From Acetobacter sp. CAG:977 (GTDB lineage Bacteria; Pseudomonadota; Alphaproteobacteria; CAAGCB01; CAG-977), in NCBI GenBank assembly GCA_000434295.1, contig HF994935.1, positions 564,588 to 628,587 of the forward strand: 64,000 nucleotides of DNA, written 5' to 3'. Shown in pieces: positions 28,768-32,720 of the stretch. Positions within the stretch are counted from its first letter, which is position 1. Each line of letters starts with the position of its first letter. Position numbers and translations under genes: made by a program. The notes beneath the pieces are model-generated. The model had not been told where the DNA came from, ran no database searches, and was given only the letters and a program-made list of their open reading frames with translations.

Positions 28768-29229
28768 ATGGAAGCGAATTTTACGAATATTTTAATTGCG
28801 GTTATCGCCGTTTTTTGTTTGTTTACGTATGTTATCCCTTACATTCGCCGTTTAATGCGCGGTTCGGGCGTTATTTATATTGATCCGAAGGATTTGGAAC
28901 AAAAGATTGCGTCAAAGACGGATCTTTTGATGATAGACATTCGTCCGAAGGAAAATTTTTACGATATGTTCGGACATATAGACAACGCGATTAACCTGCC
29001 GTTTGAACAGTTTATGCTGAGATTGAACGAAACGGCGGACAGGCTGGCAGGGTTCAAGGAAACGCCGATCGTGATTATCGGGTTACGTGATGAAAACAAA
29101 GTCTTTTTGGCGTATCAGGCGTTACGTTCAAAGGGGTTCACAGACGTTGCCATACTGAATTACGGGTTGTCGCAATGGATACGGAAAGGGTTGCCGACGG
29201 TTGAAAGAAATGCTCATAAACCGGATTAA
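28768..29229 (+). CDS. Membrane-anchored single-domain rhodanese (sulfurtransferase-like)
   Basis: N-terminal TM helix; rhodanese fold pattern (LLMIDIRPKENF...AINLPF..). No active-site Cys after the TM helix, so probably non-catalytic. Confidence 0.6.
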   Translation: MEANFTNILIAVIAVFCLFTYVIPYIRRLMRGSGVIYIDPKDLEQKIASKTDLLMIDIRPKENFYDMFGHIDNAINLPFEQFMLRLNETADRLAGFKETPIVIIGLRDENKVFLAYQALRSKGFTDVAILNYGLSQWIRKGLPTVERNAHKPD

Positions 29230-31681
29230 GAAACATTTATTACCCATTGTTTTAACGACATTTTTTGTGTCTGTGGCAATCGCGGCGGTCGAACCGAACG
29301 CCGTGATCGTCTATTTTCTGCCCGTGCAGGATACCGCTTCCGTCGATTCGCCTCATGCGTCAAAATACGTCCCGACCAAAACAGGCGTCGTCATCGCAAA
29401 AACGACTGACAATCTGCCCGAAAAAAGCAAAATCGACGAAAAACACGGCATTAAAACGCCCGTCGGCGTTTCTTTGTACGATAAGGGCGAAACGCCGTTG
29501 GCAACGGCTCAGGAAAACGTGCTTGCTCCCGTCAAGGTCATGATTTTGCCGCCCGAAGACTTGGTTAAAAAAGATCGCAAAGCCGTTAAAGGAACTCCCG
29601 ACAGCGTCGTTCCGTTACCGATCCGCATTTTCCCTTTGCTCGACTTGAAAAAGGAAGTCGAAACCGTCGAACAAAAGGAAGAAGACAAGCCTTTGTTCCC
29701 CGAAGCCGTCAAGGTTGCCGCCAAAGAAAAAGACGACGACGGCGATCCCCGTCCGTATCTTGAATCGGAATGGCCGGCTTGGATTTTCCGCCAGCTCAAG
29801 ACGTGCGAAGGGTCTCAAAAGGCCTTTGTCCTGGCGACTCTGTATCGCATGATGGGCGATAAAAAGCCGTTGGGAAAAACAGATTGCGAAATAAAGCGCG
29901 AAGTCGCGAAATTCCTTCAAAAATGCTATCCGTGGCCTGCCGACTACTATACGCCGGACAAGTTTGATTATCCGCCCGAAAACATTCAAATCGTCCGTAT
30001 GGCTATTGAAGTCTTGTCTTCGCGTTTCGAAGGAACAAAGTTTTGTCCGCTGGATTTGACTCACATTAATTTCGAAAAGAACGATTTTATCCGCACGCAT
30101 TTTGACGAAGCCGATTTTTCGTATTCCAATTTTAACGAAGCATCTTTTCTGAACGCCCAAATGCAAAACTCGATTTTTCAAAAAGCGGAAATGGATAATG
30201 TTTTAATTCAGGAAAGCTCTTTTGAAAAAGCCTATATGAAAGGCGTTCGCATGCGTTTCGGACACATTATCGATTCCGATGTCAGCATGGCGTTTTTCCA
30301 ACAGGCGGATTTGACGAATACACAATTCAGACGTTCCAAAGCCGTTTTGTCAGATTTTTCTCAGGCAAAGCTGGCAAACACCGCGTGGGAAGACGTTGAA
30401 GGCGTTCAAATTGATTTCAGCGATTCCGATTTAACCAAAGCCGTTTTTAACAACGTTCTGTTTGAAAAAATGGAAGCCAACGGCACCGATTTTTCGAATC
30501 TGGTTTGCCGTGATTGCCAGCTTCAAGGGGCGGAAGCGCAGGATGCTTGGTTTTATCAGGGGCAATTCAATACGGTTTCTTTTAAAAATGCGGATTTGTC
30601 GGGCGCCAATTTTTCAAAAACCGTTTTCGAACCGCCGATTGTTTTAAGCGGAGTGAAAATTTACGACACGGATTTTAAAGGTGCGGATATTCGCTTCTTT
30701 GAAGGATTGACGGCGGAACAGCTTCGCCTGACGCTTATTGATGCCGACACGCAGTTGCCCAAACCGCCCGAAGACTTTGAATCGGCGTCTTATGATGTTG
30801 ATATTTTCCGCGACACGTATGAAGAAAAAGGCGAAATAGCCTACGGTTGCACTCAAAAAATGTGTGAAGACCGCCTGAAGGGCAGAGTGTCGAATACGAA
30901 TCTGGCATTAAGGGCGATGTCTTTTATTGATGCGCCGAATACGTCTTTTGACGAAAAAATGTGGGCGTTGTGCACGATGGGATGTATTGCCCGGTATGAT
31001 AAAAAGCTTGAACCGTCTCAAATTGATATTTTGGCGGCATTCGTGCGCCGCAATTCAAAATGGAGCTCGGAAGACTTGTTTAAGCCGTACACACCGCTTA
31101 AACCCGAAGTTCAAACGGCTTTGTTTATTTTGACGGATCCAGCGGCGGGAATATATCCGTCGTATGACATTGATCTGTCCGGAACCGACTTGCGCGGGGC
31201 TGATTTGTCAAATTCGGATTTGCGTGCCTTTACGTTCAGAGGGGCAAATCTGAGCGGAGCCAATTTGTCGGGTTCAATTGTTGACGATGCGTTCAACCGT
31301 TTTGACCGTGCCGTTGTCGACCAGTTTACGGTTTTGCCAAAAAATGTCAGCCGTTTCATGCCTTATCAGCTGCCCGAAGAACTTGTTTGGCCGCGTTGGT
31401 GGAAACCGGGTACGGTCAGGGTGATCAAAGATACGGTCAATTTATGGTACCCGATTACCGAAACGATACCGTTCTCGGATGATTTTATCGTTCGTCCGAT
31501 AGGATTAAGCGCTTCGAACGAAACGAAAGATCAAAAAGCCGCAGAGCCGGCTCAAACAACGGAAAAAGCTTCGGCTGAAACAAAAGAAGGCGCAAAAACC
31601 GAATCAAAAGGGGAAAAATCAGAACCGCAACAAGGAACGAAAGAAAAGGATAATAAGGAAGGGGAAGGGAAAAATGAATAA
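29201..31681 (+). CDS. Large membrane-anchored pentapeptide-repeat protein (826 aa) with Pro-rich linker and K/E-rich tail
   Basis: TM helix then two blocks of A(D/N)LxG-type pentapeptide repeats (ADLTNTQFRRSKAVLSDFSQAKLANTAW.., GTDLRGADLSNSDLRAFTFRGANLSGANLSG); overlaps rhodanese stop by 29 nt. Confidence 0.7.
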   Translation: MKEMLINRIKKHLLPIVLTTFFVSVAIAAVEPNAVIVYFLPVQDTASVDSPHASKYVPTKTGVVIAKTTDNLPEKSKIDEKHGIKTPVGVSLYDKGETPLATAQENVLAPVKVMILPPEDLVKKDRKAVKGTPDSVVPLPIRIFPLLDLKKEVETVEQKEEDKPLFPEAVKVAAKEKDDDGDPRPYLESEWPAWIFRQLKTCEGSQKAFVLATLYRMMGDKKPLGKTDCEIKREVAKFLQKCYPWPADYYTPDKFDYPPENIQIVRMAIEVLSSRFEGTKFCPLDLTHINFEKNDFIRTHFDEADFSYSNFNEASFLNAQMQNSIFQKAEMDNVLIQESSFEKAYMKGVRMRFGHIIDSDVSMAFFQQADLTNTQFRRSKAVLSDFSQAKLANTAWEDVEGVQIDFSDSDLTKAVFNNVLFEKMEANGTDFSNLVCRDCQLQGAEAQDAWFYQGQFNTVSFKNADLSGANFSKTVFEPPIVLSGVKIYDTDFKGADIRFFEGLTAEQLRLTLIDADTQLPKPPEDFESASYDVDIFRDTYEEKGEIAYGCTQKMCEDRLKGRVSNTNLALRAMSFIDAPNTSFDEKMWALCTMGCIARYDKKLEPSQIDILAAFVRRNSKWSSEDLFKPYTPLKPEVQTALFILTDPAAGIYPSYDIDLSGTDLRGADLSNSDLRAFTFRGANLSGANLSGSIVDDAFNRFDRAVVDQFTVLPKNVSRFMPYQLPEELVWPRWWKPGTVRVIKDTVNLWYPITETIPFSDDFIVRPIGLSASNETKDQKAAEPAQTTEKASAETKEGAKTESKGEKSEPQQGTKEKDNKEGEGKNE

Positions 31682-32720
31682 ACTGATATTTTTGGCGATG
31701 CTTTTGTGGAGCGTTCCGTCGATGGCGGCGGTGGATCCCGTAGAATTGCGCGCGCGAGCGGCAAACGGGGATGTTGCCGCGGCGACTGATTTGGGGAAAT
31801 ATTATCAGGACGTCAAAAAAGACGTTAAAAGTGCCGAAAAATGGTTTTTTGCGGCGGGTAATGCCGGCGATGCGGAGGCTCAATACCGTTTGGCAAAGAT
31901 TTATGACGCTTCGCGCGAAGGCAAACATCCGAACAAAGAAGTTGTCGCGTGGTTGGAAAAAGCGGGAGCTCAAGGGCATATGGAAGCTCAGCTGATGTTG
32001 GGCAAGATTTATCAATTCGGCAGGCGCGGTATTCCCAAGGATTTGTCCAAAGCCAAGATTTGGTATGATATGGCGGCGGCAAAAGGTTCGAAAACGGCAA
32101 TGGTACAGATAGAAAACCTGTACGCGAACGTCAAAGACGGCTATGTCAAAGCCGTTCAAACGAATGCGGATTTGTCCTGGTTGGATGCTTCGGCAAAGCA
32201 GGGCAATGCGGAAGCTGCGGCTCGATTGGCGGTTTTGGCGGAAAAGGGCGAAGGCATTCCGCAAGACTATAAACGTGCGGCGGATTTGTATAAGGTTGCG
32301 GCGGAAGCGGGCATTCCTCAGGCTGAAGCCGGATTGGGCAGCTTGTATGCGTCGGGGCAGGGCGTGCCGCTGGATTATGAAAAGGCGGTTTATTGGCTGA
32401 ACAAAGCGGCGGAAGAAGGCTTTGTCGAAGCGCAAAGAAAGCTTGCCGACATTTACGCCTATAAACGCGGAGATTCGGCAAAAGCCTATGCGTGGATGGT
32501 GGTCAGCCTGTCGGCGATGTTCCCGAATGCTCAGGATTTGGTTCAGGTTTCGCCCGATTTGGAACGCTTGATTCGTTCAATGACGCCGCAGGAAATCAAA
32601 GACGGTCAGACTTTGGCGCTTCAGTTGGTCGAACGCATCAAAGAAAACAAAAAACAACAGGAAGAACGCCAAAAAGAATTGTTGGCTCGTATGGAACAAT
32701 ATCAAAAAGACGCGGAGTGA
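31674..32720 (+). CDS. Secreted Sel1-repeat protein
   Basis: Signal peptide; 7+ Sel1 units (AEAQYRLAKIY, MEAQLMLGKIY, EAGLGSLYASGQGVPLDYEKAVYWLNKAAEEG); overlaps upstream stop by 8 nt. Confidence 0.75.
   Translation: MNKLIFLAMLLWSVPSMAAVDPVELRARAANGDVAAATDLGKYYQDVKKDVKSAEKWFFAAGNAGDAEAQYRLAKIYDASREGKHPNKEVVAWLEKAGAQGHMEAQLMLGKIYQFGRRGIPKDLSKAKIWYDMAAAKGSKTAMVQIENLYANVKDGYVKAVQTNADLSWLDASAKQGNAEAAARLAVLAEKGEGIPQDYKRAADLYKVAAEAGIPQAEAGLGSLYASGQGVPLDYEKAVYWLNKAAEEGFVEAQRKLADIYAYKRGDSAKAYAWMVVSLSAMFPNAQDLVQVSPDLERLIRSMTPQEIKDGQTLALQLVERIKENKKQQEERQKELLARMEQYQKDAE

Follow-up and report, generated by a model that had tools for sequence, protein, structure and literature searches.

Three overlapping genes at 28768-32720 on the + strand of a 64,000-nucleotide stretch (the window) from 'Acetobacter sp. 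CAG:977', an uncultured human-gut alphaproteobacterium, encode a membrane protein with a rhodanese-homology domain, a large multi-domain pentapeptide-repeat protein (PRP) and a Sel1-repeat protein. Comparison of their junctions and neighbourhoods in about 25 species shows that the three form one translationally coupled, clade-specific operon. Within one group of uncultured gut alphaproteobacteria the triplet is strictly conserved, and outside that group it was not seen. What is new here is a PRP, exported as far as its N-terminus tells, that carries orphan modules and has dedicated partners. The longest open reading frames (ORFs) on the + strand are 28768-29229 (153 amino acids, aa), 29201-31681 (826 aa from a TTG) and 31674-32720 (348 aa). 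Public records cover the adjoining TrmFO (CCZ22960.1), the rhodanese (CCZ22961.1) and the Sel1 protein (CCZ22963.1). The features are collected in Table 1.

Dozens of independent assemblies contain the same locus. When one genome per GTDB species was scanned, 21 loci were found, all in 'Alphaproteobacteria bacterium' or 'Rhodospirillaceae' metagenome-assembled genomes (MAGs) from human gut, rumen (roe deer, buffalo, sheep) and horse faeces. In every locus where the contig permits, trmFO and then hpnD read in one direction and the rhodanese, PRP and Sel1 genes, in that order, read away from them in the other. Across about 25 gut, rumen and faecal species every PRP relative, down to 35% identity, lies within a triplet. 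The most distant members, from a profile search, keep the same order, and a PRP gene follows the only divergent rhodanese homologue whose context was examined (P0167). The first-pass annotation had staked the grouping on the three genes being co-located elsewhere, and they stand together wherever context is readable. At 90% identity the full-length PRP relatives form 12 clusters, which are 98-38% identical to the query; all other matches cover the repeats only. The rhodanese group was found only in this clade (54 matches, all with at least 54% identity). Sel1 orthologues were likewise found only there, at ~50% identity or more, below which the matches drop to generic Sel1 proteins.

The operon coincides with a synteny breakpoint in 22 species-level loci. 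The first gene 3' of Sel1 belongs to 14 families among these 22 loci, and the genes past sodB, on the other side, vary as well. Identity to the window proteins is 67-86% for TrmFO, 46-93% for the rhodanese, 38-89% for Sel1 and 35-81% for the PRP. The dS between species exceeds 1 and dN/dS is 0.07-0.17, with purifying selection in every PRP segment. Because dS is this high and the flanks are reshuffled, retention of the triplet reflects more than a lack of time for rearrangement. Within the window species (window versus L001-L006) the PRP differs by 7-23 aa (20-58 nucleotides, nt) between assemblies, and the rhodanese and Sel1 genes have 0 aa changes, only synonymous ones. The changes in the PRP are scattered, signal peptide and tail included.

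The longest ORFs overlap by 29 nt (rhodanese/PRP) and 8 nt (PRP/Sel1), as first annotated. The start common to all PRP orthologues is the ATG at 29210, which gives a protein of 823 aa and reduces the first overlap to 20 nt; the TTG at 29201 was rejected as a start because its codon is TGG in most species and not conserved. In 25 of 26 loci the rhodanese-to-PRP spacing is -14 to -20 nt, and the one other locus (L022) has a masked stretch. A Shine-Dalgarno-like GGTGGA sits within the invariant PTVERN codons of the rhodanese gene. The PRP-to-Sel1 spacing lies between -11 and +15 nt and is most often -4 (ATGA). Co-translation of the three genes, proposed from a single genome, agrees with a coupling geometry that is conserved between species. 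The unity of the operon follows from this conservation of the stop/start overlaps in about 25 species.

Transcription signals point the same way, because no internal terminator stands out, a hairpin follows Sel1 and the rhodanese gene is preceded by a conserved promoter-like element. Alignment of the intergenic region from 20 species gave the clade consensus TTGTAT-N16-TATACT for this element. The window species has TCGTAT-N17-TTACCA, with a degenerate -10, and this version is fixed in all seven assemblies of the species; it may be a weaker or differently regulated promoter. A generic promoter scan did not call the element. The hairpin was picked out by a consensus scan and is likely a bidirectional terminator closing the operon; the total number of terminator-like sites in the region is at chance level. 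An Rfam scan found only two tRNAs in the window and no RNA family in the operon, and a riboswitch or other known RNA in the leader was rejected on this basis.

The PRP is a member of the pentapeptide-repeat family (Pfam PF00805 clan). Its Pfam matches are Pentapeptide (5.3e-32, 109 bits against a cut-off of 20.2), Pentapeptide_4 (2e-26) and Pentapeptide_3 (8e-16). At least 8 tandem A(D/N)LXX-type pentapeptides mark the family, and the protein has ~45 + ~11 of them, with the right-handed quadrilateral β-helix expected of such repeats. The two separate A(D/N)LxG blocks recognized at first sight are agreed upon by a register test and by the AlphaFold2 (AF2) model. The first block (~281-505) holds ~45 pentapeptides in one unbroken register (71/90 versus 13-24 in the others). 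The resulting β-helix is acidic, with a net charge of -13, and carries a conserved C433-x-x-C436. The second block (~649-705), of ~11 pentapeptides, is the most conserved part of the protein. The model is confident for residues 180-713, and its predicted local distance difference test score (pLDDT) is below 50 from residue 714 on. The protein had been called unusually large, but many PRPs of 800-1400 aa exist; the unusual part is its orphan non-repeat modules.

The N-terminus of the PRP was compared in 24 species. It has 2-5 K/R, an uncharged run of 16-20 residues in most species, an A-x-A-like end and an invariant (A)VEP. This n/h/c-region pattern looks like a cleavable Sec signal and not like the N-terminal transmembrane (TM) anchor of the first-pass annotation. 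Because the pattern is the classic cleavable one, the PRP is predicted to be exported rather than anchored. The helical cap before the first β-helix has C199, C226, C239 and C279, all invariant in the 24 species. The domain between the two β-helices has an invariant C547-x4-C552 and C588-x3-C592, the two motifs being placed on two helices. In all, the protein has ten cysteines, every one conserved and nine of them invariant, which may form disulfides or bind metal.

Three non-repeat regions of the PRP gave no match when compared with Pfam at E <=10. A HMMER profile of residues 25-285, run against 1.84e9 representative proteins, gave 10 matches, all of them family members. The N-terminal orphan region contains the strand motifs VIVYFLP, GVSLYDKG, NVLAPVKVMILPPE and IRIFPL. 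The composition of what had been called a proline-rich spacer is 10.6% Pro and 33% K/E/D. Conservation is 0.57 for residues 26-145 and 0.64 for residues 701-765, versus 0.58 for the β-helix core. The K/E-rich tail reported earlier is present at residues 766-823, but it is absent or very short in almost all orthologues and is thus not a family feature.

The rhodanese fold of the first protein is supported by PDB matches to 1yt8, 1qxn and 3hix. A single N-terminal TM helix spans residues ~5-26 and is followed by RRLMRG. In all 25 orthologues, compared with GlpE as a reference sequence, the active-site position is Gly or Leu, within an acidic loop (IIGLRDEN), and the Cys of the CxxxxxR loop is missing. 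HMMER alignments to solved rhodaneses agree, placing FCKT of Sud (1qxn) opposite GLRD; Alr3790, which also lacks the Cys, has GAGDEQ. The first impression of a non-catalytic rhodanese, gained from one translation, thus extends to the whole group. The sole cysteine (C17) lies within the TM helix and varies between species, and a catalytic use of it was rejected for lack of conservation. The helix has 0-1 positive charges on its N-side and 2 to 5 on its C-side (24 species), and because the positive charges are on the C-side the rhodanese domain probably faces the cytoplasm by the positive-inside rule. Three rumen or gut loci (L019, L020, L021) have a rhodanese of 168 aa with a second N-terminal hydrophobic helix; the positive flank before the domain is kept. 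Alr3790 (3HIX) and the first domain of 1YT8 are likewise non-catalytic rhodanese domains, in which the catalytic Cys is replaced and the loop is acidic. Unlike these, the window protein has a single, predicted N-out/C-in TM anchor, an IGLRDEN loop, coupling to putatively exported proteins and homologues found only within the clade.

The third protein has the multiple Sel1 repeats and the α/α solenoid that define the Sel1-like repeat (SLR) family. Signal-peptide features are present in all orthologues of the 24 species, with cleavage predicted between SMA and AV in the window protein, so the secreted nature read from the first sequence holds as a prediction for the group. The start giving 348 aa is supported because the hydrophobic N-terminus is conserved in all orthologues. 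Many public gene calls begin at Met17 and give 332 aa, a start that leaves out 31674-31721 and would remove the signal peptide. In the AF2 model (mean pLDDT 83) helix pairs over residues 22-282 form two α-solenoid halves, 22-150 and 165-282. A conserved region and then a 43-residue helix (305-347) complete the C-terminus. Foldseek matched the model to LpnE, LceB, EsiB and HcpC (E 6e-12 to 2e-7) and to AlgK (1.6e-6), and phmmer gave E down to 7e-52, for an Oxalobacter Sel1 protein. The NCBIfam models for ExoR, MerG, AlgK and MotX all scored far under their cut-offs.

The three domain types had been said to combine in no defined system, and none came to light. A literature search found no paper combining pentapeptide repeat, Sel1 and rhodanese, and one on CAG:977 returned nothing useful. 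No NCBIfam model reached its cut-off on any of the three proteins, which gave sub-threshold generic repeat matches. Anti-phage defence was considered and rejected: PADLOC had no matches for the rhodanese or the PRP and only a chance-level 20-bit match for Sel1, and the HalA (Hailong) model scored 26.7 bits against a cut-off of 250. The idea of a DNA or protein mimic of the Qnr/MfpA type is a poor fit for an exported protein. Qnr, MfpA and AlbG are cytoplasmic dimers of ~200 aa acting on gyrase, whereas the window PRP has 823 aa, a predicted signal peptide and conserved cysteines, and because of the last two it is placed, unlike them, outside the cytoplasm. The Qnr/MfpA-type NCBIfam models scored 23-49 bits on it against cut-offs of 240-500.

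The nearest parallel to the PRP is YjbI of Caulobacter crescentus, a secreted PRP with a secretion signal, Cys pairs flanking its β-helix and a charged C-terminal tail; it was described in 2026 as the first role for a secreted bacterial PRP (PMC12864828). YjbI silences the ChvGI and UzcSR envelope-stress systems, needs the charged tail for function and is proposed to sit in the lipopolysaccharide (LPS) layer (PMC12864828). Both are alphaproteobacterial PRPs with a secretion signal, an acidic quadrilateral β-helix and flanking conserved cysteines, the envelope location of the window protein being a prediction. They differ in size and plan. YjbI has a single short helix (its named orthologue Rfr32 has 167 residues; PMC12864828) and two Cys pairs, whereas the window PRP has 823 aa, two β-helices, three orphan modules and ten conserved cysteines, of which four precede β-helix 1, four follow it and two lie inside it. 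Unlike YjbI, it is also part of a strict operon whose other genes encode a Sel1 protein and a pseudo-rhodanese. Extracytoplasmic PRPs offer a second comparison: Rfr32 and TL15 have disulfide-stabilised helical caps, and Rfr23 has a Cys39-Cys42 CxxC 'disulfide bracket' (PMC8145042). The window PRP is comparable to Rfr32 (2G0Y), Rfr23 (2O6W) and TL15/At2g44920 (3N90) in its signal peptide, α-helical caps with possible disulfides and CxxC in a β-helix. Export is thus supported, because signal features occur in 24 species and the conserved cysteines match those of extracytoplasmic PRPs. Those proteins are however single domains of 130-170 residues from cyanobacteria or plastids, and the window PRP is five times larger and has orphan modules and operon partners.

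For the Sel1 protein the parallel is ExoR, a periplasmic Sel1 protein of 268 aa whose orthologues are largely confined to Rhizobiales (PMC4550343). ExoR binds and inhibits the ExoS/ChvG kinase and is released by proteolysis (PMC4550343; Chen et al. 2008, cited in PMC12864828). Both proteins have a signal peptide followed by a solenoid of Sel1 repeats only, and both belong in the alphaproteobacterial periplasm, the window protein by predicted export. At 348 aa the latter has an additional conserved C-terminal region and a long helix. LpnE, LceB, EsiB, HcpC and AlgK share its SLR solenoid fold, a similarity that amounts to a generic repeat match; the window protein has no Cys-rich Hcp-type repeats and no AlgK-like lipoprotein signal. 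The PRP and Sel1 proteins appear to belong to neither the YjbI nor the ExoR family.

An envelope-associated signalling or host-interaction module, as first proposed, remains the most reasonable class of explanation for the operon, and within it a specific function can only be inferred. Tentatively, and with less than even confidence, we suggest that the PRP is an exported rod stapled by disulfides and acts in the envelope together with Sel1, in envelope maintenance or sensing, its closest analogues being YjbI and ExoR. The PRP would be exported to the periplasm, possibly going on to the outer membrane or the surface, and its two quadrilateral β-helices would make it a rigid, acidic rod. The α-helical domains would cap and interrupt the rod and be stapled by disulfides (or metal) through the ten conserved cysteines. 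Its N- and C-terminal stretches (26-145 and 701-765) may be docking motifs, likely ligands of a solenoid groove, because they are conserved like the folded core yet have pLDDT <50. The most likely partner of the PRP would be the Sel1 solenoid, which would be exported with it and is of a kind that typically binds extended peptides. The pseudo-rhodanese, in the inner membrane and facing the cytoplasm, might be a non-catalytic anchor or adaptor. By analogy with YjbI and ExoR the module would maintain or sense the state of the envelope.

Several points weigh against this proposal. A YjbI-like charged C-terminal tail is found in the window PRP only and not across the family. Rfr32 (2f3l/2g0y), used as a proxy for YjbI, matches the PRP repeats only (E = 7.7e-5), and the PRP is no closer to Rfr32 than to other PRPs. 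The Sel1 protein is not an ExoR orthologue (NF045484, 53.9 bits against a cut-off of 450). The export of both proteins is predicted from features of their sequences, and the PRP-Sel1 envelope complex is proposed by analogy. A cytoplasm-facing domain beside two exported proteins has no obvious logic in the model. Because a single lineage holds every occurrence, common descent could account for some of the conservation.

A different use of the same proteins would have the PRP, with Sel1, released or displayed at the surface, where it would target host or neighbouring cells as an adhesin or effector. Precedents for this mode of action are the Legionella Sel1 proteins LpnE and EnhC and the PRP-containing effectors PipB2 and SopA/NleL. 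The best structural matches of the Sel1 protein are LpnE and LceB from Legionella and EsiB from uropathogenic E. coli, and the PRP has weak NCBIfam similarity to PipB2, PipB and a HECT-type effector family, but the effector similarities are limited to generic repeats and lie far under the cut-offs. The family was found only in gut, rumen and faecal MAGs. The PRP has a species-specific charged tail, evolves faster than its neighbours by the identities given above and alone of the three has within-species aa polymorphism; its dN/dS, however, indicates purifying and not diversifying selection. The only export signals are of the Sec type, no secretion-system genes adjoin the operon in any locus, and an inner-membrane protein with a cytoplasmic domain would be superfluous to an effector pair. 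We regard such a role as unlikely. A tie to the divergent neighbours, one co-directional block of trmFO-hpnC-hpnD-hpnE(amine oxidase)-sodB on the - strand (window 23821-28662), would have the triplet place or sense hopanoids or squalene-derived lipids, with co-regulation through the shared region of 100 bp. The block is retained from trmFO to hpnE in every locus reaching that far, and sodB adjoins in most. Hopanoids in other Alphaproteobacteria are outer-membrane lipids associated with lipid A. For YjbI, a position within the LPS layer has been proposed (PMC12864828). All the loci examined keep the divergent arrangement unchanged while the genes beyond sodB and Sel1 vary, and the shared intergenic region holds the conserved element, but that element looks like a σ70-type promoter acting in one direction only, towards the rhodanese gene. 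Adjacency is the sole evidence for the tie, the block is headed by a tRNA methyltransferase gene with no lipid connection, and Pfam and NCBIfam detected no lipid-binding or transport domain in the triplet; we take a lipid role to be quite improbable.

The three genes might instead be unrelated, clade-specific and held together by overlapping frames and shared ancestry. Every occurrence is within one lineage, no known system joins the three domain types, and the predicted compartments differ, the rhodanese lying at the cytoplasmic face and the PRP and Sel1 in the periplasm. Against this, the three orthologous groups were found only in the clade and together wherever the context can be read, and their coupling geometry survives dS >1 while both flanks reshuffle. 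The PRP-to-Sel1 junction varies enough in spacing that overlap alone is no lock. We consider this reading very unlikely. The large ORF could also have been two ordinary pentapeptide proteins joined by a fusion or frameshift artefact, as the first-pass annotation allowed, given its two separate repeat blocks and one MAG (L036) in which the PRP is called as two ORFs. That split is a run of 10 N at 6917-6926 of the scaffold, an annotation artefact that could pass for a variant with two genes. In about 25 species and dozens of independent assemblies the ORF is intact, at 728-826 aa, and keeps its domain order. The inter-block domain is conserved with its four invariant cysteines, and every segment is under purifying selection. 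The artefact was rejected, being hardly conceivable in face of these data.

The proposed envelope pair can be extended to the pseudo-rhodanese. The triplet would then be a trans-envelope relay, from an outer-membrane PRP rod to a periplasmic Sel1 connector and on through membrane-embedded contacts to the pseudo-rhodanese as output. We consider this quite unlikely; a link from YjbI to a 'periplasmic connector' is only speculated on by the authors of the Caulobacter study (PMC12864828). If true, a YjbI-like sensor and an ExoR-like 'periplasmic connector' would be joined in one operon with a new, kinase-independent cytoplasmic output, and the Cx4C…Cx3C and CxxC motifs might work as a switch that responds to redox state or metal (zinc).

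Nothing so far points past an ordinary envelope or adaptor role for the triplet. Even so, a large, apparently exported PRP hard-wired to a Sel1 adaptor and a membrane pseudo-rhodanese gives a testable hypothesis on binding partners. The family suggests a link between two otherwise separate alphaproteobacterial envelope regulators, YjbI and ExoR. The triplet is also a clean genomic marker of a widespread uncultured alphaproteobacterial lineage of gut, rumen and faeces.

Table 1. Features of the operon and its flanks, in window coordinates
Feature	Position	Strand	Remarks
Promoter-like element	28705..28733	+	In the 105-bp trmFO/rhodanese intergenic region; putative function
Rhodanese-homology protein, 153 aa	28768..29229	+	Pfam Rhodanese 1.2e-12, 48.6 bits (cut-off 22.2)
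Multi-domain PRP, 823 aa	29210..31681	+	Conserved ATG; predicted to be exported
PRP signal peptide, residues 1-25	29210..29284	+	Predicted from sequence features; cleavage between VAIA and AVEP
PRP N-terminal orphan region, residues 26-180	29285..29749	+	AF2 pLDDT <50; without Pfam match
PRP N-terminal helical cap, residues 181-285	29750..30064	+	AF2 helices 185-270, pLDDT ~80-90
PRP β-helix 1, residues 286-500	30065..30709	+	~11 coils
PRP inter-helix α-helical domain, residues 501-650	30710..31159	+	AF2 helices 521-642, pLDDT 70-92
PRP β-helix 2, residues 651-700	31160..31309	+	Best Pfam Pentapeptide stretch 658-693; conservation 0.68
PRP C-terminal conserved region, residues 701-765	31310..31504	+	WWKPxTVRV, LWxxTExIPFSD; without Pfam match
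PRP K/E-rich tail, residues 766-823 and stop	31505..31681	+	Window species only; conservation 0.08
Sel1-repeat protein, 348 aa	31674..32720	+	Predicted to be exported; Pfam Sel1 2e-28, 98 bits (cut-off 30.7)
A6-stem-loop-T6 hairpin AAAAAAGCCTCTGAAAACAGAGGCTTTTTT	32742..32771		13-pair stem, symmetric; separates the convergent Sel1 and DUF3800 genes

The triplet, which had been placed at the edge of an accessory-looking region, is core within its clade, and the window that contains it is ordinary chromosome. The window carries cysS, a GlgE/MalQ glycogen cluster, sodB-hpnE-hpnD-hpnC-trmFO, bpt, ppa, rnhA and mazG, together with pcm-tolC-DUF2497-valS, relA/spoT, era and a topoisomerase A subunit gene. 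On the 5' side, trmFO and the first of two SQS_PSY genes share 8 nt, and a tRNA methyltransferase gene beside squalene synthesis genes (trmFO-hpnCDE) is an odd pairing. On the 3' side, the DUF3800 gene (32770-33630, - strand) is the next one after the operon in the window species and in its nearest sister (L012) alone. In one related species (L007/L008) genes for a 342-aa ankyrin-repeat protein, a DNA methyltransferase and a type I restriction enzyme lie near the operon at 15.4-16.6 kb; these genes are not in the window.

A second Sel1-repeat protein of 401 aa is encoded at 7966-9171 on the - strand. Near its gene lie those of an MBOAT acyltransferase (5757-7169) and an AlgX/SGNH-like protein (4030-5760), with an unannotated 267-aa ORF (7166-7969, - strand) between the MBOAT and Sel1 genes. 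The set at 4030-9171 resembles an AlgI/AlgJ/AlgX-type polysaccharide O-acetylation cluster plus an AlgK-like partner. Farther along the window the GC content falls to 0.39-0.44 in parts of 38-44 kb. An Elm1-like ('Mito_fiss_Elm1') gene (41313-42584) and a DUF6782 gene (42643-43809), both on the - strand, adjoin tRNA-Asn and tRNA-Cys (43939-44097, - strand).

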